Shown piece after piece: positions 4,278 to 34,368 of a DNA stretch of 64,000 nt. The DNA lies in contig CAXXLZ010000002.1 in assembly GCA_963675595.2 (NCBI GenBank), positions 1 through 64,000 of the forward strand, given 5' to 3'. A model generated the notes under the pieces. The model searched no databases. It was not told the origin of the DNA and saw only the letters and a program-made list of their open reading frames with translations. Positions within the stretch are counted from its first letter, which is position 1. Every line of letters starts with the position of its first letter. Source of the stretch: Thermodesulfobacteriota bacterium. GTDB taxonomy: Bacteria; Desulfobacterota; Desulfarculia; JACQYL01. Both the position numbers and the translations under genes were made by a program.

Positions 4278-5578
4278 TTATGCCCCCCCGCCCCATAAGC
4301 GCTAACTTAAGCATTGTTTGCTATGCTTCTTTCCGTCTGAGGAATCAGCCGCTGAAGTGCTCGTTTCCTTGGCGGTTCTCGCAAATAAAAAGATATGTTA
4401 TCCCAGCCGGCAATGCATTCGGCCAAGCCGAGTTTAGGGTTCACGGCTTGTTTCAGCAGGTGTAACATAAACATGGTCTCTCTCCAGAAGCATCGATTTC
4501 TACGGTGGTTCTTTTTGGAGTGGGTATCCCCAGGGAAAAAAAGATTCGCCTGCGGCGATCATGGCCTCCACTAAGAAAGCCACCAGTAGTTTCCCATGGA
4601 TCCAGGCCTTGGCTCCTTCGATGTCGGTCTTTCTAAGATGGCCTAAACCGAGAATGGACTTTAGACGCTTGAAAGCGAGTTCAATTTGCCATCGACCTCG
4701 GTACATCTCGAGGACCTGAGAGGGCGAGATTTCACGGCCCAATGTTGTGAAAACAAATATGTAGGCCGCCGCTTCGAGGGTGTCCGGAGTAACTTGGCGA
4801 CCTTTTTTCCTCGCCTCTTTTTCTATCGCTTTACGAGCTTTTTCAGTGGCGTCTTTGCTCTTCTTGATGGCACAGATTCTACCTGGAACCAAGCGTTGTT
4901 CAAATGGAACGAATGCATCCCACTCGCCAAGCTTATTTACACGTAACGTCCTTAGATGAGGGAGTAATTGGAATCGTTCCCCTTGCTTGTCCACCATGGC
5001 GACACGGTGTTTCATTCGAACCAGGACGTCGCCGCCGTTGTCTATGACATGGTGAATTCCTCTTGGTGTGCAATAGGCTCTATCCGCTACAAGAAGTTCA
5101 CCGCCATGGACTTTGAAATTGGTGAAGGATTCTCCGATCTTGGGGTCTGTTACATAGACTTCGTCGCAGCGCAGCGAAGGCAATTGTATGGAATAATGGA
5201 CCCTCCAAGTCGTTCCGGTACTTCCAGGTTCTTGAATGGTGGAGGCATCGATCAACCTGATGCGTGAATTCTCTCCAAAAACAACGGCGGGCAGCTTTCG
5301 AAACCATTTCTCCATGACCCCTAAGGCCATCCACCGAAACCACTCTCCGCATTTATTCAGTCGTTTTAGGAGAGCTACGTCGGAAATCGACGTAATGTTG
5401 CCGAACCTGGCTTTGGCCGCCGTCAGCCGAAGTGAGCAACCTTCCGCCAGATGGATCAGAAGCGTTCGCAACAGACCTTCGGCGTCCACGAACTTACGGT
5501 ATCTGACAACGGCACCAAGTTCCCTTGCTTTGGATTGCCAGCCATCGGGAAGAAAACCCTGGAGAACTTCCCAGTCTT

Positions 5579-7454
5579 GATGCCGTCGTAAGAACCCCCC
5601 TTTACGAACAGGGCTGTTTTTTGGAGCATTGGAAGTTCAAGCGGCCATTGCAACACTGCCAAGGTTACTGTCATCGTGACATAGGCTACAAAGACGACGG
5701 AAATTATCGTTGCTGCCTCCCTCTATCGAGTTGGAAAGGGCCTTCTTGGCCTTATCAAGGCGGCTCTGGACGAACCTCTTGATGTTGATGGCCAGGGCCT
5801 TCATGAAAACAGATAAGGTGACCCGTTTTTTGCCTCGGGTCCACGATCGTTTCAATCCCGTGACCCGATCCGCTTCGGAGATGGTGGCCTCGATGCCGGA
5901 CCGGATTTTGTAGCGTTCTTTGAAATCATGGCTTTCCTGCTGTAGTCTGCGCTTGGAGGTCGCCATGTCCTTGCGCTTGTACTTCAGTCGATAATTTCCG
6001 CCCTTGATCCGTTTTACCGGACAGATGGGGAGAAATTCGCATAGGAGACAGTGCTCGCGGGAAAACACGGCTTCCACCGCTTTGCCGCGGTCAACGATCT
6101 TGCATTCAAGTGGCGCGTGCCCCCGGATACAGTAAACGACCTGGGTGCAGTCCTCGTTCGTTTCAAAGTCACTCAACTGCATCTTATTGAGATCCGGCGC
6201 TTTTCCGCAAGTCACCGGAGCGGTAAGCTCGACTCCGTGCTCGTGAGCTTGAAGGATGTTCTCGCCGCTGCCGTAGCCTGCGTCGGCGAACAACTCTTCG
6301 GGTTTGCGGCCCGTTTCCTCCAGGCGTTCGATAACGGGCATCACGTCTTTCTGGTCGCTGTCATAGGAAGGGGCCACGTCCACATCGGTGATCACCTGGA
6401 AGGGATTTTCCTTCACGCAGGTCTCCGTGAGGGAAGCCTTATATCCTTTGCCCTTGCGCCCATAGGTGGCGTCGGGATCCGAAGGATTCTGCAGGGAGTC
6501 CGCAGGGATTTCCTTGGGCTTCTCGAGTTCTGTTTTGTCGGGATCTCCCTCGGTGAAACGGCATTGCTCCGACAGTAGTCGGGCCATCAGCCGGTATTCT
6601 TTCATTCGGCTGATTTCCGGATGACCTCGGAAGCGGTCCACCAGGTCGGCGAGATGGCGGGCGGACTTGTCCAGACGACGCTTGGCCCGCGATGATTTTG
6701 CATCGGCAAAATAGCCTGCGCGCTTCAAGTAGGCCTTGTCGTAAAGTCGGGGCAGTTTCTCATACAACTTGGGATGTTTCTTATGGAGCCGTTTCAAGAA
6801 CGCCTCGATGGTGCGCGTAAAGAGCCCCAGACGGCTCAGATGAGCCATGTTGGAAGTGATCTGTGTGGAGTCCAACCGCTGTTTGTCCGTGCTAAGGGCC
6901 GCCGTCTCGATGATGGCGTCCGTGATTCCGGTAAAGAGGCTCCGCGCTTGCTTGTTGTCGGTAATCAAGGTCCGGAAATTGTGCAGGGTCTTCTGGCAGA
7001 CGTGAGATTCAAAGGCGTTGATGTTGAAGGCATATTGCCAACGCAGATCGAAGTCCAGAGCGCCCAAGACTTCCGCATCGGTCAGGCTGTTCATTTCCTT
7101 CAAAACACACGCTCCGACAAGGATGGCCACGGGTCTGTTGGGCCTGCCGTTGTCCTCACAGTAGAAAGGCCGGAAAGACTCCTCATCGATCATGGGAAGC
7201 ACCAGGCGCCGGAACGGACCGGCCCACGTCTTCTCCAACGCCTCGATCCTGTCTGCGGGAAGGCAAATATCGTGGTCGAAAATGGTCTTTTGCGTTCTCT
7301 TAGGCCGAAACAAAACAACCCCCCTAAGGACCATATTATTAATCAAGTCAGATACTTATCATACAGGACCCAAAAGAAAGGTCAACCCATAAATGCCATT
7401 TTTATTCATATTTTCAACTAGATACCTTTACGGAGAGGTTTTTACGAACTCATC
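5579..7454 (-). mobile_element. Nested IS (IS1182/ISNCY-like), 1876 bp
   Basis: Imperfect TIR GATGCCGTCGTAAGAACC / GATGAGTTCGTAAAAACC; 6-bp TSD AGTCTT (5573-5578 / 7455-7460). Confidence 0.9.
5637..7313 (-). CDS. DDE transposase (DUF772-like N-terminus, DDE_Tnp_1_6-like C-terminus)
   Basis: DNGRP, RLDSTQ, PSDPDATY, ADAGY, CxxC zinc motif, YKIRSGIEAT; probable TTG start at 7313. Confidence 0.9.
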   Translation of the reverse strand: MFRPKRTQKTIFDHDICLPADRIEALEKTWAGPFRRLVLPMIDEESFRPFYCEDNGRPNRPVAILVGACVLKEMNSLTDAEVLGALDFDLRWQYAFNINAFESHVCQKTLHNFRTLITDNKQARSLFTGITDAIIETAALSTDKQRLDSTQITSNMAHLSRLGLFTRTIEAFLKRLHKKHPKLYEKLPRLYDKAYLKRAGYFADAKSSRAKRRLDKSARHLADLVDRFRGHPEISRMKEYRLMARLLSEQCRFTEGDPDKTELEKPKEIPADSLQNPSDPDATYGRKGKGYKASLTETCVKENPFQVITDVDVAPSYDSDQKDVMPVIERLEETGRKPEELFADAGYGSGENILQAHEHGVELTAPVTCGKAPDLNKMQLSDFETNEDCTQVVYCIRGHAPLECKIVDRGKAVEAVFSREHCLLCEFLPICPVKRIKGGNYRLKYKRKDMATSKRRLQQESHDFKERYKIRSGIEATISEADRVTGLKRSWTRGKKRVTLSVFMKALAINIKRFVQSRLDKAKKALSNSIEGGSNDNFRRLCSLCHDDSNLGSVAMAA

Positions 7455-7643
7455 AGTCTTCCATTTCCTCGGAAAAAACGAGACGCTCCATTGCCACCTC
7501 CTTTGGCGGCAACGGTACCATAAACCTCACCAAAACAAAAGGCTTAAGTTAGCGCTTATGCCCCCCCGCCCTCGCGAGCACTCATCGCCCTCCCGAAAGC
7601 CCTTCTTGGAGGACCCTCTTTCAGTTCGCCTGCACATTTCTTC

Positions 7644-7671
7644 TTGACACGAGGAGGACAATAGGCGTAAT
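7644..7671 (+). promoter_or_regulatory. Candidate sigma70 promoter for the leader/aroA'B' operon
   Basis: TTGACA-N16-CGTAAT upstream of the leader ORF. Confidence 0.45.
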
Positions 7672-7713
7672 GGACCTACCATCTTCCAAATCCATTTTAG
7701 GACGGTTCGAAAC

Positions 7714-7788
7714 GTGAATCAATCCAGGCGCTTTTACTTTTATTTTTATTATTACTTCGTTCACGGGGGTGGACTGCCTGCGGATTGA
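7714..7788 (+). CDS. Attenuator leader peptide MNQSRRFYFYFYYYFVHGGGLPAD
   Basis: GTG start after AGGA; nine consecutive Phe/Tyr codons; followed by an intrinsic terminator and aromatic-biosynthesis genes. Confidence 0.88.
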   Translation: MNQSRRFYFYFYYYFVHGGGLPAD

Positions 7789-7811
7789 TCCATAGTCGTT
7801 TGTCTTGACTT

Positions 7812-7850
7812 AAGAGCCGTGGGCACCCCGCCCACGGCTTTTTTGCTTTT
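7812..7850 (+). terminator. Attenuator (rho-independent) terminator
   Basis: AGCCGTGGGC-ACCCC-GCCCACGGCT stem-loop followed by TTTTTGCTTTT, about 40 nt upstream of the aroA' start. Confidence 0.9.
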
Positions 7851-7889
7851 TGCAGCGCTCTTTTCAACGCGAAAACAAAAGGAGACGAC

Positions 7890-8690
7890 ATGATCGGGAA
7901 GGAAATCAGACTGGAACGTTTCATGAACCGAAAGACGGGAAGAAGCGTGCTGGTGCCCATGGACCACGGAGTCAGCGTGGGACCCATTCACGGCATCACG
8001 GACATGAAGCAGGCCATGAGCCAGGTGGCCGACGGCGGCGCCAACGGAGTGGTGGTTCACAAGGGAGTGGTGGCTCGCGGTCACCGGAAGAGCGGACCCG
8101 ACATGGGGCTTATCCTGCACCTTTCGGCCAGCACCTCCCTTTCTCCGGAACCCAACGCCAAGACCCTTGTGGCCACGGTGGAAGAAGCCATCAAATTGGG
8201 GGCCGACGGAGTCTCCGTTCACGTGAACATCGGCGACGGCAGAGAGAAGGAAATGCTGGCCGATTTCGGGTTTGTGGCGAGGATCGCCGCGGAATGGGGC
8301 ATGCCGCTTCTGGCCATGGTCTATCCGAGAGGAGAAAAGATTTCCAACGAATACGACTTGGAAGTGGTCCAGCACTGCGCACGCCTGGGGGCGGAACTGG
8401 GGGCGGACGTGGTCAAGGTTTCCTACACCGGAACACCCGAAACATTCAGCAAAGTGGTGGAAGGCTGCCACATCCCGGTCATCATCGCCGGAGGTCCCAA
8501 GATGGAATCCGAACGGGCCGTTTTCGAAATGGTCAAAGACGCCATCGATGCGGGAGCCGCCGGAACGTCCATCGGCCGAAACGTGTTCCAGCACAAAGAC
8601 CCGACCAAGATCGTCAAAGCCTTGTGCAAGCTGGTCCATGAAAACGCGAGCGTCGAAGAAGCCATGGAAATCACCAACGGCGGGGCTTAG
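7890..8690 (+). CDS. 2-amino-3,7-dideoxy-D-threo-hept-6-ulosonate synthase (class I DhnA-type aldolase, AroA')
   Basis: [20 protein letters not shown] (Schiff-base Lys), AGGPK, GRNVFQ; adjacent to DHQ synthase II. Confidence 0.9.
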
Positions 8691-8951
8691 CACCCGGTTA
8701 CGAAACGTCCGGTCATCGGGTGACGACCCTGCGTGCATGCGAGTGACCTCCAAGCCTCCTCATGATTCATTTTCCACGGTCCGGCCGTGTTTCACGGTCC
8801 GGGGGGAGGAGCCGGAGGCGCTTCTTGGGGAAGGGCCCGCGGTACTGTGAAATCGGCCGGCCGGACACCGATGATTCATTGAAGAATCCCTTCCCCGGGC
8901 GGGCCCTTGGCTCCGGTTCGTCCCGGTCCAACAACCTGCGGGAGTATTCGA

Positions 8952-9947
8952 ATGAAAGAAATCTGGGTGAACGCGGACCCTTGGGACAAAGAACTGGTTA
9001 CCACGGCTCTCGAATCCGGGGCGGACGCGGTGATCGTACCCCAAGAACGGGTGGAGGAGACCCGAAAATTGGGACTGATCAAAATCGTGTCGTCAAACGG
9101 CGATCTGCAATGGGACCGAGACGTGGTCCGGATGGAAGTCGGTTCCTCCGAGGATGAGGATCGCGTGGTCGCGGCAAGCCGCGAAGGGAAACGGGTTGTT
9201 GTGCAGACCAAAGATTGGAAGATCATCCCTCTGGAAAATCTCATCGCCCGTGGTGGGAATCTTTTTGTGGAAGCGGCAGATGAAGCGGACGTGGAGACGG
9301 CTTCGGGAATCCTCGAAAAAGGGGTCAACGGGCTCATTATCAGCCATCCGGACCCTCTTCGGGTGAAGACGTTGCTCAGCTCGATCCGGATGCACGACGA
9401 AGCTCTGGAGCTTTCCGTCCTCACCGTGGAGGAGGTGCAACCTCTGGGCATGGGCGATCGCGTTTGCGTGGACACTTGCAGCCTCATGGATCATGGTCAA
9501 GGATGTCTGGTGGGAAACAGCAGCAGGGCTCTTTTCCTGGTCCACGCCGAAACCCTGCAAAACCCTTATGTGGAGCCGCGTCCTTTCCGCATCAACGCGG
9601 GACCTGTGCATGCCTACGTCCGGGTCTTGGATGGCAAAACCCGTTACCTTTCCGAGCTGAAGGCCGGCGACCGGGTCCTGGGAGTGGACGCTTCGGGCGA
9701 AACCATGCCCCTCATTGTAGGGAGAGTCAAAATAGAACGACGGCCCTTATTGCTGATCAAGGCGAGAGAGCCCAACGGATTGGTGTCCACCATCTGCCAA
9801 AACGCCGAAACCGTTCGTTTGGTCGTGCCCGGAGGAGAAGCCCGCTCCGTGGTGGAACTCAAACCCGGCGACGAGATTCTAGGCCATCTTGAAGCGGCCG
9901 GCAGGCATTTCGGGCATCGCATCCAAGAGACGATCACCGAGAATTAG
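8952..9947 (+). CDS. 3-dehydroquinate synthase II (AroB')
   Basis: DWKIIPLENLIA, GDRVCVDTC, RPFRINAGPVHAY, QNAETVRL, GRHFG signature motifs. Confidence 0.95.
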   Translation: MKEIWVNADPWDKELVTTALESGADAVIVPQERVEETRKLGLIKIVSSNGDLQWDRDVVRMEVGSSEDEDRVVAASREGKRVVVQTKDWKIIPLENLIARGGNLFVEAADEADVETASGILEKGVNGLIISHPDPLRVKTLLSSIRMHDEALELSVLTVEEVQPLGMGDRVCVDTCSLMDHGQGCLVGNSSRALFLVHAETLQNPYVEPRPFRINAGPVHAYVRVLDGKTRYLSELKAGDRVLGVDASGETMPLIVGRVKIERRPLLLIKAREPNGLVSTICQNAETVRLVVPGGEARSVVELKPGDEILGHLEAAGRHFGHRIQETITEN

Positions 9948-10192
9948 CGGTCTCCGCCGTCAATCCCTCCATCACCCCGGGTGCCCGTCCGCCGGCGGCG
10001 GACGGCCCCGTCCTGCGATGATCCCTCGAGCACGGTCGTACTCATTACCGGTTCTTGGAGGGCATTAAATAGAGCTTCTCCGGCCGGTCGGCATACGGGA
10101 TAACACGGTATGGAGCTCCTTATGCCGACTTCGGCGTGCGTTTCCTCGTGACTCCCGCTTTCCTTGATCCGGCAAACTGATATAATGGAGAG

Positions 10193-11425
10193 ATGAAACC
10201 ATTTCACACCATGCGCGACTTCGCGCCTTATCTCCAATGGATCGAAACCCAGCACGACTCCATGAAGTCGTGGCTGTTCCACTGGTGCGGCATTAATTCC
10301 GGGAGCCGGAATCCCGAGGGCCTCGACCGAATGCGCGCCGTGCTTCGGGAAGCGTTGCTCCCCCTCGGTGGTGAAATCTCGTTGATTCCCGCCGCTCCCG
10401 CATTGCAGGTTTCATCCGAAGGAGAAGTCTCCGAACTTCCCGTGGGCGGCATCTTGAGGGTTCTCCGAAGACCTCGGGCACGCACGAGGGTGCTCCTCGT
10501 GTGTCATCTGGACACGGTGTTTCCGCCGGAGCACGCCTTCCAAAAGGTGACCGAACCCGGAGACGGAACGATCCATGGACCGGGGGTCGCCGATGCCAAA
10601 GGCGGCATCGCGGTGATGATCAAAGCGCTGGAGGCTTTTGAAAGGACTCCGTTTGCCGGAGCCCTGGGCTGGGAAATCCTGATCAATTCCGACGAGGAAC
10701 TCGGTTCGCCCGGCAGTGCTTCGGTCTTCGCGGAAACAGCTCGAAATCACCAAGTCGGACTGGTTTTCGAGCCCGCCATGCCCGACGGTTCCCTGGTGAG
10801 CAGCCGCAAGGGAAGTGAAAACTATACCGTGGTGATCCGTGGAAGAGAGGCCCACGCCGGCCGCACCCCGGAAGCGGGACGCAGCGCCGTCAACGTGCTT
10901 GCCGAACTCATTCCGCACTTGAACGCCGCGGCCTCGGGCCTGCCCGGCGCCCTGGTCAACGTGGGGGTTATCTCAGGAGGAACCGCCGTCAACGTGATAC
11001 CCGGACTGGCATTGGCCCGTTTCAACCTGCGGGCGGTTTCCATGGGAGACCAACGCCTCCTCGCCCAACGGGTCAGAGAAGCAGTGGATCGGTTCCAGGA
11101 TCGGGACGGTATTTCACTTGAGCTCCACCGTACCTCTTCCCGGCCTCCCAAGGAGGCGGATGAGCCCATGGCCCGCTTGATGCACTCCGCGGAAGACTGC
11201 GCCGATGAATTGGGGTTCTCCCTCCAATGGCGGGCCAGTGGAGGCGTCTGCGACGGCAACAACTTGGCGGCCTCGGGCCTTCCCACGCTGGACACCATGG
11301 GCGTCCGGGGGGATCACCTGCATTCCGCCCTGGAGACCATGGTTTCGGACAGCCTGGTGGAAAAGGCCAAGCTCTCCGCGCTGTTGCTCATGAAAACGGC
11401 CGTCGAGAGCGTCCATCGGCCTTGA
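10193..11425 (+). CDS. M20-family metallohydrolase (candidate succinylglutamate desuccinylase)
   Basis: HLDTV, GPGVADAKGG, DEELGS, FEP, HAG, GVCDGN; first gene of the AST cluster. Confidence 0.85.
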   Translation: MKPFHTMRDFAPYLQWIETQHDSMKSWLFHWCGINSGSRNPEGLDRMRAVLREALLPLGGEISLIPAAPALQVSSEGEVSELPVGGILRVLRRPRARTRVLLVCHLDTVFPPEHAFQKVTEPGDGTIHGPGVADAKGGIAVMIKALEAFERTPFAGALGWEILINSDEELGSPGSASVFAETARNHQVGLVFEPAMPDGSLVSSRKGSENYTVVIRGREAHAGRTPEAGRSAVNVLAELIPHLNAAASGLPGALVNVGVISGGTAVNVIPGLALARFNLRAVSMGDQRLLAQRVREAVDRFQDRDGISLELHRTSSRPPKEADEPMARLMHSAEDCADELGFSLQWRASGGVCDGNNLAASGLPTLDTMGVRGDHLHSALETMVSDSLVEKAKLSALLLMKTAVESVHRP

Positions 11426-11515
11426 CACCGTTCCACATCCATCCGTGTGGCCGATCCTGCCCGTCATCAACGGTCGCACCTCGGCCCGATCACCCTTTTC
11501 GCTTTGGAGCGTGTG

Positions 11516-12904
11516 ATGAAATCGCTGTCGGCGGAGACTTTTCTCTCGGATTCTCGTGTGGTGGAAGCCAAACAATTGATCCTGTCCGCTCTGGCGGATC
11601 ATCAAACGGCCCTCTCCACGGTCCGACCTCCGGACCCCGCCCGTAAGACGTCTTATGACGAGGTCCTCCGCCGGTTTGAGAATCTCAGGGGCGCTCCCCT
11701 GTTCTTCCCCTATCTCGGAAGCGGTTTCGGCAACGGTGTCTTCGTGGAACTGGCCGACGCCTCGGTCAAGTACGACTTCATCAGCGGCATCGGCGTTCAC
11801 TACTTGGGACATAATCATCCCGCATTGGTGGAAGCCGCCTTGGATGCGGCCCTGCAAGATACGGTGATGCAGGGCAATCTCCAGCAGAACGTCCAGAGTC
11901 TGCCGGTGCTGGAGAAGCTGGTCGCGTGCGCCAAAGGCCGGGGAGCCCGTCTGGATCATTGCTTCCCGTCCACCAGCGGCGCCATGGCCAACGAGAACGC
12001 GCTCAAGATTCTCTTCCGGAAGAAGTACCCGGCCGATCGGCTTCTCGCCTTCCAAGGCTGCTTCACCGGGCGAACCTTGGTGTTGTCGCAGGTCAGCGAC
12101 AAGCCCGCTTTTCGCAAGGGGCTGCCCCGGACCGTTGCGGTGGACTATGTGCCTTTCTACGATCCCGAAGATGGCGAAGGAAGCACGAAGAGGGCGGCCG
12201 CGGTGCTCAAAGAGCACCTTCTTCGATATCCGGAAAGACACGCGGCCATGATGTTCGAACTCGTCCAGGGGGAAGGAGGATTCTTCCCGGGCGATCGTTC
12301 CTTCTTTGTAACGCTGATGGAAATGCTGAGGGAACACAACGTATCGATCCTCATCGATGAAATCCAGACCTTTGGAAGGACCTCGGAACTCTTCGCTTTC
12401 CAACATTTCGGTTTGGACGATTACGCCGATGTGGTCACCGTGGGCAAGCTGCTTCAAGTCTGCGCCACCTTGTTCCGGGACGACCTGGCGCCTGAGCCGG
12501 GTCTGCTCAGCCAGACGTTCACCGCCTCGACCTCGGCGCTTTTCGCGGCTTCCGCCGTGTTGGATCATCTCACGGAAAGCCGGAAATACCTGGGTCCCGA
12601 GGGTCGCATCGAGGAGTTGCACCGGCTTTTCGTACGGAGCGTGGAAACCATCCGGAAGAAAGACCCGGACCTGCTGTCGGGTCCCTACGGTCTGGGCGCC
12701 ATGTGCGCCTTCACACCGCTGGACGGCTCCCCCGACAAGGTTACGGCCTTCGTCCGACGGTTGTTCGACGCGGGAGTCATTGCATTTATCGCGGGATCCA
12801 ACCCCGCCCGGGTCAGATTTCTCATGCCCGTGGGCGTGGTGACCGATGGGCACGTGGCCGAAGTCATGGACATTGTCCACCGAGCCCTTGTGGAATCCCG
12901 ATAG
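11516..12904 (+). CDS. Class III PLP aminotransferase (candidate succinylornithine transaminase)
   Basis: SGAMANENALK, FTGRT, ELVQGEGG, DEIQT, TVGK (PLP Lys). Confidence 0.85.
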   Translation: MKSLSAETFLSDSRVVEAKQLILSALADHQTALSTVRPPDPARKTSYDEVLRRFENLRGAPLFFPYLGSGFGNGVFVELADASVKYDFISGIGVHYLGHNHPALVEAALDAALQDTVMQGNLQQNVQSLPVLEKLVACAKGRGARLDHCFPSTSGAMANENALKILFRKKYPADRLLAFQGCFTGRTLVLSQVSDKPAFRKGLPRTVAVDYVPFYDPEDGEGSTKRAAAVLKEHLLRYPERHAAMMFELVQGEGGFFPGDRSFFVTLMEMLREHNVSILIDEIQTFGRTSELFAFQHFGLDDYADVVTVGKLLQVCATLFRDDLAPEPGLLSQTFTASTSALFAASAVLDHLTESRKYLGPEGRIEELHRLFVRSVETIRKKDPDLLSGPYGLGAMCAFTPLDGSPDKVTAFVRRLFDAGVIAFIAGSNPARVRFLMPVGVVTDGHVAEVMDIVHRALVESR

Positions 12905-12988
12905 CGCGGTCCGCACCGTTGGAGGAGGACCGACCGGGCCGGCCGGATATTCCCGGCTGCAACGTCCATCGGGGCACCCGAAGGGGAA

Positions 12989-14035
12989 ATGGAAATGATT
13001 CTTGTACGTTCCATCCATCAAAGCGACCTGGAAGCCCTGCTCCGTCTGGCGGAAACCGCCGGTTACGGGCTCACCACGCTGCCTCCCGATATGGAGCTCC
13101 TTAGAAAGCGGGTGCTCCGTTCGGAACGAAGTTTTGCCTGTGCCGTCGAGGAACCCGGCGGGGAGATTTATACCCTGGTCATGGAAGATACGGATACGGG
13201 CGAAATCATCGGGACGAGCAGCATCGTGTCCAAAGTCGGTGGCTTCCAGCCCTTCTATGCGTACCGAATCGAGTCTGAGGTTTTCGAGTCCAAACAACTC
13301 GGAATTCGTAAAGAAATTCAGAGCTTGAACCTGGTCCGGGAGCACAGCGGTCCCACGGAGATCGGCGGTTTGTTCATCTCACCTCAACAACGCCGCAAAG
13401 GTATTGGACGGCTGATTTCCTTGTGTCGTTTTCTCTTCATGGCGGAGCATCCGCACCTATTCGAGCCCCAAGTGATGGCGGAGATGAGAGGCGTGGTGGA
13501 CGCCAACGGACATTCCCCGTTTTGGGAAGCCCTTGGGAGGAAATTCTTCGACCTGGATTACTCCAAGGCGGACCTGCTGAGCATGAAGGACAAGCGATTC
13601 ATCGCGGACCTGATGCCCGAGGAAAGAATTTACATTCCCCTGCTTCCGGACGAGGCGCAGGCGGTGATCGGACAAGTGCACGATCACACGCGCCCCGCTT
13701 TAAAGATGCTCCTGGATGAAGGATTCCGGGTCACGGACCTTGTGGACATTTTCGAGGCGGGTCCCATTGTCCTTTGTGACCGGGACAAGATCCGAACCGT
13801 GCGTGAAAGCCGACGGGCCGAAATCGCCGATTTGAGTCCTGAAGAGCCCTCTTCGGATGCCCTATTGGTCGCCAACACCGACATCGAGTTCCGTTGCTGC
13901 CTGGGCTCGATCGCGGAGGCGGGCCAAGGCACGGTTCGAATTTCCGGGCGGGTTGCCGAAGCCCTGAAGGTGGGTAAAGGGGACCGGGTCCGCTTCGCTT
14001 CGCCTCGCCCATCCGAACCCCCTAAGGAGGCATGA
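12989..14035 (+). CDS. astA: Arginine N-succinyltransferase
   Basis: GLTTLP, TEIGGLF, AEMRG, SPFW, FIADLMP, IGQVH, VDIFEAGP motifs. Confidence 0.93.
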   Translation: MEMILVRSIHQSDLEALLRLAETAGYGLTTLPPDMELLRKRVLRSERSFACAVEEPGGEIYTLVMEDTDTGEIIGTSSIVSKVGGFQPFYAYRIESEVFESKQLGIRKEIQSLNLVREHSGPTEIGGLFISPQQRRKGIGRLISLCRFLFMAEHPHLFEPQVMAEMRGVVDANGHSPFWEALGRKFFDLDYSKADLLSMKDKRFIADLMPEERIYIPLLPDEAQAVIGQVHDHTRPALKMLLDEGFRVTDLVDIFEAGPIVLCDRDKIRTVRESRRAEIADLSPEEPSSDALLVANTDIEFRCCLGSIAEAGQGTVRISGRVAEALKVGKGDRVRFASPRPSEPPKEA

Positions 14036-15501
14036 TGGCGGACACAAAAGGGCTGTTCATCAACGGGCAATGGGTCCGGGGTCAGGGAACGGAACTTGTA
14101 TCAAGGAATCCCGCCGATGGGGAGCCCGTATGGCGGGGATCGACTGCGGATTCGGATCAGGTGAACGCGGCAATGGATGCGGCGCGCCGCGCCTTCGATT
14201 CCTGGTCCCGAACCTCCTCTGCGGATCGGGCGGGGCTGCTCGAACGCTTTCACGGTGAACTCAAGGCTCACAAGACCGAACTGGCGGAAGCCGTTTCCAT
14301 GGAAGTGGGCAAACCTCTTTGGGAGTCTCTCCAAGAAATAGACGCCATGGCGGCCAAGATCGATGTCTCCCTGGACGCCTATCAAGAGCGATGTCCCACC
14401 GTGGTAAAGTCGCGGAACAATACGGCGTCCGTGTTGCGCTACAAACCTCATGGGGTCGTTGCCGTAGTGGGTCCTTTCAATTTCCCCGGGCATCTTCCCA
14501 ACGGTCACATCGTCCCGGCGTTGCTCGCCGGCAATGTCGTGGTGTTCAAACCGAGCAGCCGGGTTCCCGCCGTGGCCGTTAAGACCGCCGAACTATGGGA
14601 AGCCGCGGGAATTCCCCCCGGCGTGTTCAACCTGGTGCTCACGGACTCGTCTTCCACCGACACCCTGGTGGAACACCCGGCATTGAACGGACTGTTCTTT
14701 ACCGGCAGCAACGCCACTGGGAGGGCCATTCACAGAAAGTTCGCCGGACATCCGGAGCGTATCCTGGCCCTGGAAATGGGCGGCAACAGTCCTCTGGTGG
14801 TCTGGGACGTGAAAGACCTCGAGTCCGCCGCTCTCGTGACGGTGCAATCCGCGTTCATCACTTCCGGACAGCGATGCACCTGCGCCCGGAGGCTCATTGT
14901 TCCCGACGACGAACGAGGGGCCGCCTTTCTTAAAGTTCTCTCTTCCCTTACGAAACGAATTCGTGTGGGCCGTTACGACGAATCTCCCGAACCGTTCATG
15001 GGCCCGGTGATCGGAGAGGAAGCCGCCGACAAGTTGATGAAGGCTCAGACAAATCTCCGGTCCTCGGGAGGCTCGAGTTTGGTCCCTATGGAACGCCTCG
15101 ACAGGAAAGGAGCCTTTCTTTCTCCCGGAATCCTCGATGTCACCGAGGTTTCCCAACGCCCGGACGAGGAGCTCTTCGGACCTCTCCTCCAGGTGGTGCG
15201 TGTGGGAGACGTCCATGATGCGCTCAGGGAAGCCGACCGGACCCGGTACGGCCTGGCCGCGGGTCTGTTATCCGATTCCCGGGAACTTTACGAGCGTTTC
15301 CTGTCCGAAATCCACGCCGGGGTCGTGAACTGGAACCAACCCACCACCGGAGCAAGCAGCCGCATGCCTTTCGGCGGTGTGGGCGCCAGCGGCAACCATC
15401 GTCCCAGCGCCTACTTCGCGGCGGATTATTGCTCCTACCCCGTGGCTTCCTCGGAAGCGGAAACCGTCCCGCAGTTCAAACCACCTCCGGGAATCCAGTA
15501 A
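14032..15501 (+). CDS. astD: Succinylglutamate semialdehyde dehydrogenase
   Basis: GPFNFPGHLPNGHIVPALLAGN, LEMGGN, GQRCTC, SGNHRPSAYFAADYCSYP. Confidence 0.96.
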   Translation: MMADTKGLFINGQWVRGQGTELVSRNPADGEPVWRGSTADSDQVNAAMDAARRAFDSWSRTSSADRAGLLERFHGELKAHKTELAEAVSMEVGKPLWESLQEIDAMAAKIDVSLDAYQERCPTVVKSRNNTASVLRYKPHGVVAVVGPFNFPGHLPNGHIVPALLAGNVVVFKPSSRVPAVAVKTAELWEAAGIPPGVFNLVLTDSSSTDTLVEHPALNGLFFTGSNATGRAIHRKFAGHPERILALEMGGNSPLVVWDVKDLESAALVTVQSAFITSGQRCTCARRLIVPDDERGAAFLKVLSSLTKRIRVGRYDESPEPFMGPVIGEEAADKLMKAQTNLRSSGGSSLVPMERLDRKGAFLSPGILDVTEVSQRPDEELFGPLLQVVRVGDVHDALREADRTRYGLAAGLLSDSRELYERFLSEIHAGVVNWNQPTTGASSRMPFGGVGASGNHRPSAYFAADYCSYPVASSEAETVPQFKPPPGIQ

Positions 15502-15523
15502 TGACAGCACAGAGGTGCTTCGC

Positions 15524-16909
15524 ATGATGGAAGAGCGGACCGTGGAGATGAACTTCGACGGCTTGGTAGGTCCCACCCATGGCTATGCGGGTCTGTCGTA
15601 CGGAAATCCCGCGGCCATGCGCCACGAAGGCTCCATGTCCAACCCGAGGGAAGCCTTGCGCCAGGGTTTGGACAAAATGAAACTTTGCGCGGACCTGGGA
15701 ATCCCCCAAGGGGTACTGCCTCCCCGGGAACGTCCCTATCTCCCCGTTCTCCGTCGGTTGGGATTCCAAGGATCGGACGAAGACATACTGCGACAGGCGG
15801 CCGCCCAAGACCCGGTGTTGCTGGCCGCCTCCGCGAGCGCTTCGAGCATGTGGGCCGCCAACGCCGCCACGGTTTCTCCTTCCGCCGATACCGATGATGG
15901 TCGCGTGCACTTCACCCCCGCCAACCTGACGACCCAGTTCCACCGATCCTTGGAAACCGTGTCCACGGCCGAAGCCCTCCGCCTGATTTTTCCCTCCCCG
16001 GAATATTTCGTCCATCACCCTCCCCTCCCCTCGGGCCCACATTTTTCCGACGAAGGGGCCGCCAATCACACCCGCCTGTGTCCTTCAATTCACGAGCCGG
16101 GCCTGGAAATCTTCGTGTACGGCAAAAAAGCGTTCCATAGTTCGGACGCCCTCCCCAAGAAGTATCCAGCACGGCAAACGATGGAAGCGTCCAACGCCGT
16201 GGCGCGCCTTCACGGCCTGCACGCCGATCGAGTGCTGTTCCTCAAACAAAATCCGGACGCCGTGGACGCCGGTGTGTTTCATAACGACGTCATCGCCGTT
16301 GGACACGAAAACGTATTCCTGGTTCATGAACAGGCCTTTGCGGAAGGAAAGGAGGCCGTCGCAAAAATCAAGCGGGCCTTCGAAGGACTTGCGCAGGCTC
16401 CCCCGCACGTGATTGAGATTCCCAGGGAACGGATTTCGCTGGAGACTGCTGTGGAGACCTATTTGTTCAACAGCCAGCTGTTGACCTTGCCCGACAGGTC
16501 CCTCTGTCTCCTGGCTCCCAAGGAATGCGCGGAGCATCCCGCAGCCGCGCACATTTTGGAGGAGCTGCCCGAACTCGGCACCCCCATCCGGCGCATCGTC
16601 TATGTCGACGTGCGTCAGAGCATGAAGAACGGCGGAGGACCCGCCTGCCTGAGACTTCGAGTGGTGCTGAGGGACCAAGAACGCCGAGCGGTGCACGCAA
16701 ATATCGTCTATTCCGCGAAACTCCATCAACGGCTGTTGAAATGGGGTGATGCGCATTACCGGGATCGCCTTCATCCGCGTGATCTGGCGGACCCCGCCCT
16801 GCTCCGTGAGAGCCGTACCGCCCTGGACGAACTCACGGACATCCTGGAACTGGGGCCGTTTTATGATTTTCAGCGGGAGCCCATGCAAAGCGGGAACGGA
16901 CCGGCATAG
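15524..16909 (+). CDS. astB: N-succinylarginine dihydrolase
   Basis: NFDGLVGPTH, SSMWAANAAT, DEGAANH, GVFHNDV, SMKNGGGPACLRLRV. Confidence 0.97.
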   Translation: MMEERTVEMNFDGLVGPTHGYAGLSYGNPAAMRHEGSMSNPREALRQGLDKMKLCADLGIPQGVLPPRERPYLPVLRRLGFQGSDEDILRQAAAQDPVLLAASASASSMWAANAATVSPSADTDDGRVHFTPANLTTQFHRSLETVSTAEALRLIFPSPEYFVHHPPLPSGPHFSDEGAANHTRLCPSIHEPGLEIFVYGKKAFHSSDALPKKYPARQTMEASNAVARLHGLHADRVLFLKQNPDAVDAGVFHNDVIAVGHENVFLVHEQAFAEGKEAVAKIKRAFEGLAQAPPHVIEIPRERISLETAVETYLFNSQLLTLPDRSLCLLAPKECAEHPAAAHILEELPELGTPIRRIVYVDVRQSMKNGGGPACLRLRVVLRDQERRAVHANIVYSAKLHQRLLKWGDAHYRDRLHPRDLADPALLRESRTALDELTDILELGPFYDFQREPMQSGNGPA

Positions 16910-16979
16910 ACGCGTCGGCGGGTATTCATAGAGAAGCCCTGCAAAGGTGTTCCCCATACCTCTAAACAAGACGGACACC

Positions 16980-17318
16980 ATGGCAATCTCCGCTTTCCAA
17001 AGTCTCAAATTTCAGGTGCTCGATTTGGTGAATCTTTCCAGAGACGCCGTGCACATGCATGTCGGAATCGCCGTGTTCCTGTTCACCGTGGCGATCCGAA
17101 AGAAAGAAGGAATGGACTGGTTGTGTCTATTACCGGTCTATGCGTTGGCCGTATCCACGGAACTATTGGACCTGAGAGACTGCCTTACGTCATTGGGGCA
17201 CGTTCGGTGGTCCGCCGGCATCCACGACATTCTTAACACCGTTTTCTGGCCCACCGTGATGGTGTCTTACGCCTATCTCAGCCGAAAGCTTCATGACGTG
17301 AACAGCGGGCGACTTTGA
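16980..17318 (+). CDS. Small hypothetical membrane protein
   Basis: Three hydrophobic segments; DAVHMHVG and DILNTVFWP motifs; co-oriented after astB. Confidence 0.65.
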   Translation: MAISAFQSLKFQVLDLVNLSRDAVHMHVGIAVFLFTVAIRKKEGMDWLCLLPVYALAVSTELLDLRDCLTSLGHVRWSAGIHDILNTVFWPTVMVSYAYLSRKLHDVNSGRL

Positions 17319-17509
17319 AGGCCTGACAAGAGTCGCGCTGCGCCTTTGCCCGGTTTCGCGTTTCCGCTTCACGAATCCTTTGCGCCAACCAGCCGTCCGC
17401 CGGTAGCGACGCGTTCTCCCCAACGCGTCGGATTACGAAAAAGACAAGGGGAAACGCCTTCCGGCACCTCCCCTTTGATCCGCTTCGTGCTCACGAGTTA
17501 TAGAGATCG

Positions 17510-30879: not shown

Positions 30880-31187
30880 GGCGTTCAGGGACTGCTTAGG
30901 CCGAGCTTTGCTCGGCTCCATGCTCTTCCGGGTTCTTGTCGCGCAAGCCGCAAAGCCGGGCCTTCGGCCGTCTTCTGAGCGGGTACCGTGGCCCGCCCCT
31001 GCAATAGACGAAACCGAACTCGGGAGCATCCTTGCCGATTCAGCAGATGTAAGGAACGTTGGTAATTAGTGAGGAAACCCGATCTCCTCCGCAGCCTCTC
31101 CGTCGAAGGCGGTGAGGCCTGCTTGAGATGTTTGGAGGGGGGTGTACGGGGGGAACTTTTTCAAAAGTTCCCCCCGTGAATGAATAC
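30880..31187. repeat. Modular palindromic miniature element
   Basis: GCCGATTCAGCAGATGTAAGG and GAAGGCGGTGAGGCCTG modules; palindrome at 31147-31176; right end CCCCCGTGAATGAATAC. Left end approximate. Confidence 0.75.
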
Positions 31188-34156: not shown

Positions 34157-34249
34157 GGAGGGATGGCCGAGTGGTTTAAGGCGGCGGTCTTGAAAACCGT
34201 TGTCCCGTGATGAGCGGGGCCGTGGGTTCGAATCCTACTCCCTCCGCCA
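34157..34249 (+). tRNA. tRNA-Ser (anticodon TGA)
   Basis: GGAGGGA/TCCCTCC acceptor stem with GCCA; CT-TGA-AA loop; long variable arm; GGTTCGAATCC. Confidence 0.97.
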
Positions 34250-34273
34250 ATCACTCAAAATCGTAGCGTTCGC

Positions 34274-34368
34274 GGAGAGATGGCCGAGTCGGCTGAAGGC
34301 GCTCGCCTGCTAAGCGAGTGTAGGGGCAAAAACCTCTACCGAGGGTTCGAATCCCTCTCTCTCCGCCA
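34274..34368 (+). tRNA. tRNA-Ser (anticodon GCT)
   Basis: GGAGAGA/TCTCTCC acceptor stem with GCCA; CT-GCT-AA loop; long variable arm. Confidence 0.97.

Follow-up and report, generated by a model that had tools for sequence, protein, structure and literature searches.

In the window (the whole stretch of DNA analyzed here, 64,000 nucleotides), the region upstream of the aroA' and aroB' genes very probably carries a ribosome-mediated transcription attenuator, which would admit RNA polymerase to these genes when charged tRNA-Phe or tRNA-Tyr is scarce. The sequence elements, the gene identities assigned by HMMs, the conservation in relatives and the folding energetics point to this reading; the start site, leader translation, stalling, termination and the Tyr input are deduced from them. 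The original prediction of pheL/trpL-type ribosome-mediated attenuation of aroA'/aroB' is thus well supported by the anatomy, folding and conservation of the region. Its features are as follows:

7644..7673, + strand: probable sigma-70 promoter, with an exact TTGACA at 7644-7649 and a non-consensus -10 box at about 7666-7673
7697..7706, + strand: weak ribosome-binding site of the leader, from its anti-SD duplex; a similar stretch precedes the L008 leader
7714..7788, + strand: leader peptide ORF of 24 aa with a GTG start, from sequence and homologous leaders at other loci
7714..7730, + strand: segment 1, the 5' arm of the protector in the MFE fold, spanning the start codon and codons 1-6; the pairing can be extended back to 7697
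7732..7758, + strand: control codons, nine consecutive Phe/Tyr codons by codon reading; the leader frame is the richest in aromatic codons in 17/17 type-A leaders
7775..7793, + strand: segment 2, which pairs with segment 1 (protector) or, via 7775-7783, with segment 3, and holds the leader stop codon
7812..7851, + strand: intrinsic terminator, with its 5' arm (segment 3) at 7812-7824 and its 3' arm (segment 4) at 7830-7842
7890..8690, + strand: aroA', 2-amino-3,7-dideoxy-D-threo-hept-6-ulosonate synthase (TIGR01949, 382.3 bits; cut-off 299.45)
8952..9947, + strand: aroB', 3-dehydroquinate synthase II (NF002627, 451.6 bits; cut-off 392)

The leader is an unannotated ORF that encodes the peptide MNQSRRFYFYFYYYFVHGGGLPAD. 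Codons 7-15 read FYFYFYYYF (4 Phe, 5 Tyr, zero Trp); both the ORF and this run were found as originally described. It is the only run of at least four Phe/Tyr codons across the six frames of the window, and the chance expectation for runs of at least nine is about 5e-7. Dinucleotide shuffling of the intergenic region gave no Phe/Tyr run longer than 7 (0/2000).

The first gene after the leader also matches NF005556 (403.9 bits; cut-off 241), and scores under cut-off with the fructose-bisphosphate aldolase models. Judged by these model matches, the ADH synthase and the adjoining DHQ synthase II make up the alternative dehydroquinate route, which would supply the precursor common to the aromatic amino acids that the leader encodes. 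The two genes are separated by a GC-rich, strongly folding spacer of 261 nt (8691-8951), in which no promoter or terminator was called. Further downstream, an arginine succinyltransferase cluster (astA-like, astD, astB, aminotransferase and peptidase genes) lies on the same strand at 10178-16909; this cluster may have its own promoter, given a perfectly matching extended -10 motif at 10178-10186.

A strong terminator had been predicted after the leader, and the hairpin at 7812-7842 agrees with this. It has 13 pairs (-24.1 kcal/mol) and a T tract (7839-7844 and 7847-7851), and is the strongest terminator-like site on the + strand within 7600-17500. Folding of alternative structures, the check proposed at the outset, gave this terminator together with an antiterminator (7775-7783 with 7817-7825, -12.5 kcal/mol) and a protector helix (7714-7730 with 7775-7793 in the MFE fold). 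The protector duplex reached -16.4 against a shuffle mean of -6.7, and none of 300 shuffles was equally low. On naked RNA starting at 7678, the protector had a probability of 0.95 with each of six 3' ends, and the antiterminator a probability of 0.00. The antiterminator excludes the terminator, and in the model alone it is free while the ribosome is at the control codons and blocked when the ribosome is at the stop codon. With a ribosome footprint covering 9 or 12 nt past the A-site codon, the probability of the antiterminator was 0.93-0.99 for stalls at each of codons 7-15, faded at codons 18-19 and was 0.00 from codon 20 onward; all these folding states are equilibrium models. The untranslated state is sensitive to the end points chosen, because naked RNA from 7714 to 7833-7834 prefers the antiterminator (0.81-0.83).

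The antiterminator originally proposed was assigned to other pairs. All four of its segments are present at the positions given and are complementary, but the two helices are weaker (-5.4 for 7762-7766:7817-7821 and -9.7 for 7766-7771:7824-7829, vs. -12.5 for 7775-7783:7817-7825), and 15 relatives do not preserve them. They share base 7766 and cross, and therefore cannot form a single nested helix. We rejected them as the core switch; the earlier proposal placed the pairing wrongly and overlooked the protector helix. Pairing of 7766-7770 with 7825-7829 may still extend the antiterminator in some modelled states, as a trait specific to the window.

Taken together, transcription would begin near 7680, and segment 1 is modelled to pair with segment 2 before segment 3 is synthesized. 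A ribosome loading at the GTG at 7714 would open the protector helix. If this ribosome stalls on codons 7-15, segment 2 would be free to pair with 7817-7825, so that the terminator is blocked and transcription continues into the genes; once the ribosome has reached codon 20 or beyond, segment 2 would be covered and 7812-7842 would terminate transcription. When the leader is untranslated, segment 2 would remain bound to segment 1, and 7812-7842 would again terminate. Since the control codons come after segment 1, late stalls may leave this segment free unless a following ribosome covers it.

A single GTDB scan with aroA' was performed to collect relatives. It gave 22 loci with 61-78% identity, most of which bear the titles Desulfobacteraceae, Desulfobacterales or Deltaproteobacteria; 21 of them were evaluable, L022 having no upstream sequence. 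A plasmid search returned only two haloarchaeal matches (~42% identity). Neighboring genes were named with Pfam for 117 + 12 selected locus proteins, and were read from synteny and ORF size in L003, L007, L012, L016 and parts of L013. A look for Phe/Tyr-rich uORFs before aroA' orthologs had been suggested as a check, and a related aromatic leader with a terminator is present in 20 of the 21 evaluable loci: within 450 nt of aroA' in 17, and at the head of the gene run containing aroA' in L002, L006 and L015. In L021 (Kiritimatiellia), one frame is rich in Phe codons, but neither a terminator nor a model match is present.

These leaders fall into two types. Type A, to which the window belongs, stands at the operon head behind a TTGACA box, usually 5' of a shikimate kinase gene; 18 complete leaders were found (including the window), and one more in L007 is cut off. 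Type B stands directly 5' of aroA' and comprises 15 leaders. A covariance model built from 16 type-A leaders, for which E-values are rough, recovered the left-out L006 leader (E 7.5e-16) and matched 15/15 type-B leaders (E 7e-13 to 1e-3) as well as L018 (E 1e-3), the most divergent type-A leader, assigned by position. Types A and B are paralogous, and they often occur within one operon. When L018 is excluded, one open frame with a start codon holds the aromatic codons in 17/17 type-A leaders, and the codon phase of segment 2 is constant in the same 17; the spacing from the last aromatic codon to segment 2 is 7, 10, 13 or 16 nt, in steps of three. Such a constant frame and phase, with spacing in threes, is what translation predicts, and not what mere T-richness would give.

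The two types stand back to back in four loci, where complete tandem attenuators precede aroA' (L011 717-1108, L014 5362-5751, L020 5519-5910 and L017 965-1248). On the minus strand, divergent trp leaders with NWWW and a terminator resemble the aro leaders (L001 6822-6956, L003 6550-6658, L004 6886-6945, L005 8362-8430 and L008 6910-7019). The type-A model matches them with E 3e-5 to 0.05, which suggests an RNA module in common. In L018 (9908-9947) and L019 (after 9901), the terminator of the attenuator is followed by another terminator-like hairpin, and such a second hairpin likewise lies behind the trp leaders of L001, L004 and L005.

The pairing of the switch is kept in these leaders. The antiterminator 7775-7783:7817-7825 is paired in 93.1% of 144 cells, compared with 35-47% for slid registers. 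It shows 4 two-sided changes, a number reached by 1/500 shuffles; all 4 come from the near-identical sister loci L010 and L013, and therefore from one lineage. The protector is paired in 76.4% of 208 cells (16 leaders) vs. 26-44% for slid registers, with 13 two-sided changes (14/500 shuffles) and a covariation score reached by 3/500. The 1:2 duplex beats shuffles in 11 of 17 leaders (at most 11 of 300 shuffles) and is no better than shuffles in the other six (49-133 of 300). In type B, the antiterminator is 87% paired, with covariation not above shuffles (110/500) in an alignment that includes the partly misaligned row of the window. In the footprint model, the probability of the antiterminator across 17 type-A leaders is 0.72-1.00 for a stall at the first Phe/Tyr codon and 0.44-1.00 for a stall at the last; its value of zero at the stop codon is by construction. 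On naked RNA the probability is below 0.5 in 15 of the 17, while L003 and L015 favor the antiterminator.

The amino acids that are read can be considered from the codons. The original prediction of a leader sensing Phe and Tyr "but not Trp" holds for the window, whose leader has no Trp codon, but does not extend to its relatives: 13/18 type-A and 14/15 type-B leaders contain one to three Trp codons each. The Trp-free leaders are those of the window, L005, L006, L018 and L019 in type A, and that of L005 in type B. Judged by its codons, the leader of the window lacks Trp within a Thermodesulfobacteriota/deltaproteobacterial family whose leaders mostly carry it, and the lack of Trp is a trait of the window's lineage rather than of the family. 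In the aroA' tree the window's position was without resolution. The Trp codon just 5' of the aromatic run pairs in the protector, and an Arg codon that likewise contains GG takes its place in the window; some Trp codons may thus be kept for RNA pairing. Other Trp codons lie within 5-8 nt of segment 2, and a ribosome stalled there would hinder antitermination in part. Trp sensing by the relatives is plausible. A rule by which leaders with Trp codons would go with operons containing trp genes was considered and dropped, as no clean pattern appeared. L011, L014 and L020 have Trp-rich leaders, and trp genes directly follow aroA' in L011 and L014. In L001, L003, L004 and L008, the aro leaders contain Trp although the divergent trpE has its own WWW leader, and L005 has a divergent WWW leader, yet its aro leaders are Trp-free.

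The same attenuator might read Phe alone in practice, the Tyr codons being tolerated or minor. This is reported for the aroR leader of Corynebacterium glutamicum (Phe-Tyr-Phe), which precedes aroF and, according to a review, responds to Phe and is unaffected by Tyr availability (PMC11802643; this leader is also covered in PMC4046766). However, aroR has one Tyr codon, against five in the window leader, three of them consecutive. Tyr codons occur in 32/32 family leaders counted, and all five in the window lie where the model permits antitermination. These 32 leaders contain Tyr and Phe codons in nearly equal numbers (100 vs. 98), which argues for selection on both. We therefore consider a Phe-only attenuator unlikely; Tyr, on the basis of its codons, would count as an input beside Phe.

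Control might also be mainly translational, through masking of the leader start by the protector or through coupling to aroA', with the terminator acting as a fixed damper. The leader start codon does lie under the protector, and 7/15 type-B ORFs enter or cross the terminator without an early stop (L003, L005, L009, L010, L012, L013 and L016), the stop of the L009 leader overlapping the aroA' start. In the window, however, the leader stops 101 nt 5' of aroA', whose ribosome-binding site (~7878-7883) is outside every modelled helix, and the conserved 2:3 helix competes directly with the terminator. This makes translational control improbable as the main mode compared with attenuation of transcription.

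The elements that would start the process are the weaker parts of the attenuator reading: the GTG start, the weak ribosome-binding site and the non-consensus -10 box count against it. The consensus promoter scan made no call at the 7644 TTGACA site. A TTGACA box is located 54-111 nt 5' of the leader start in 17/17 type-A leaders examined, and transcription of the window leader probably starts near 7678-7681. The duplex of the leader ribosome-binding site is -6.8 kcal/mol, vs. -7.1 for aroA' and -6.6 for aroB', as scored against an anti-SD heptamer. A 15-codon ORF (7670-7717) with a strong ribosome-binding site (-10.1) has a stop that overlaps the leader GTG, the site and the ORF together spanning 7652-7717. 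It starts inside the probable promoter and is therefore absent from that transcript, so we rejected it as a part of the leader transcript; coupling to the leader would be possible only on transcripts begun further upstream.

Mobile elements lie nearby. An IS4-family element (4294-7560) has 22-nt terminal inverted repeats at 4294-4315 and 7539-7560 and an identical C-rich 11-mer on each flank, and an IS1182 transposase gene (5637-7346, minus strand) sits within it. A 216-nt repeat occurs at 419-634 and 2700-2915 of the window in inverted orientation (82-84% identical), with partial copies near 31014 and 40183. Two neighboring tRNA-Ser genes with anticodons TGA and GCT are found at 34157-34368.

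The -35 box of the leader promoter comes 84 nt after the end of the IS4-family element, the -10 box is weak, and only aroA'-aroB' follow the leader, whereas the operons of relatives are long. Thus, the leader could be a decayed relic, in which regulation was lost when the operon was reduced to two genes beside insertion sequences. But all elements are intact, the window's aromatic run ranks with the longest of the family, and the protector is stronger than in shuffles; decay is improbable. Among the relatives, canonical DAHP synthase and AroB genes occur in the aroA' gene run of L002 (6942-8818), L004 (12569-14439) and L008 (12502-14219); in L002 and L004 a DHQ synthase II is also present, so both routes stand side by side. 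A second aldolase paralog, ~47% identical to aroA', lies just 5' of the type-B leader in L001 (8923-9741) and L005 (8910-9677), and likewise right before it in L003, L004 and L008.

A T-box, a riboswitch for a metabolite, or non-coding sequence that is simply T-rich ahead of a terminator is the least credible reading: GGGTGG at 7768-7773 loosely resembles the T-box bulge, and the Rfam trpB motif has a sub-threshold match over the terminator (19 vs. 59 bits), but no Rfam family reaches the gathering score here and no leader family appears up to E 10 in the window, the T-box core is missing, the GGGTGG stretch is not conserved in relatives, and the aromatic codons lie in one started frame in 17/17 leaders, so that a T-box or other riboswitch was ruled out by Rfam and the missing core.

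Attenuation before these genes has precedents. For Desulfovibrio vulgaris, a putative attenuator was listed in 2005 for the operon running from aroA' and aroB' through pheA to the trp operon (PMC1173090 Table 7), an entry that derives from a terminator/antiterminator database. The word "leader" is absent from that paper, and thus no leader peptide or sensed amino acid is given there. This putative attenuator has the same target genes and comes from the same broad group as the window. Attaching an attenuator to the aroA'/aroB' route is thus not a new idea. The C. glutamicum aroR leader, for which attenuation has been tested, is described as likewise combining Phe and Tyr codons at the entry of the shikimate pathway. 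It differs in belonging to Actinobacteria and in preceding a canonical DAHP synthase gene instead of aroA'. In Desulfobacterium autotrophicum, a possible pheL consisting of a Phe-codon uORF and a terminator is mentioned (PMC3082878), and it could belong to the window's leader family. The Acholeplasma uORFC-13-1 before aroF is a predicted Phe-codon uORF with a terminator (PMC8632094). Both are described as Phe-only, unlike the Phe/Tyr leader of the window. In other reports, Shewanella aroF is listed as "attenuator sensing tyr-tRNA" (PMC2659441), and the Desulfovibrio aldolase-DHQ synthase-trp cluster is described as co-regulated, attenuation being unmentioned in the text available (PMC4162548). 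A Desulfobacteraceae motif has 8 uORF candidates, of which 2 are described in the text, none of them there as aromatic (PMC11109978). The accessible parts of PMC4833913, PMC2965389, PMC7311316 and PMC13434334 contain nothing on this leader family.

A literature search with most subscription papers outside its scope found no description of the family, and in NCBIfam the 12 leaders submitted (11 aromatic, one trp) matched 0 families. Lopatovskaya et al. (2010) and Vitreschak et al. (2004) reportedly surveyed attenuators in proteobacteria, and either survey could already list family members. What the window holds is, as modelled, a real, intact and conserved attenuator. Its mechanism class, a Phe/Tyr leader at the shikimate entry and an attenuator before aroA' are precedented; no description was found of the leader family as such, of the members with Trp codons, or of the use of two leaders per operon or in tandem. 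It is possible, at somewhat less than an even chance, that these leaders form an undescribed "aromatic" attenuator family, in which the codon mix sets two (Phe/Tyr) or three inputs, the device is used twice per operon (at its head and before aroA'), the four tandem loci require two stalls for read-through, and the RNA switch is common with the trp attenuators of the same organisms.

The attenuator would provide a concrete control mechanism for the aroA'/aroB' route used by anaerobic bacteria; the sole precedent found for such control is a database prediction. A leader that counts aromatic products ties the aldolase-like genes to aromatic biosynthesis. About 33 natural variants differ in their Phe/Tyr/Trp codons and in single vs. 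tandem layout, and this series is suited to studying how inputs are acquired or lost by attenuators and whether Tyr sensing of this kind is possible. Because the mechanism is a textbook one, a specialist would find the result welcome but not surprising.

In sum, the window leader can be set beside the classical systems. In pheL and trpL of Escherichia coli, a small leader ORF containing consecutive cognate codons is combined with a 1:2 protector, a 2:3 antiterminator and a 3:4 terminator with a U tract. The window has the same parts: a leader codon run, a protector, an antiterminator and a terminator. No sequence relationship to pheL and trpL was detected, as no Rfam leader family matched. The window also differs from them in that the codons of its family are mixed Phe/Tyr(/Trp), the leader governs pathway entry and not pheA or trpE, and segment 1 overlaps the start codon and precedes the control codons. 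In thrL, ilvL and ivbL, several end products of one branched pathway are sensed through a single leader; these leaders are multi-input, as that of the window would be, but for other amino acids and genes.
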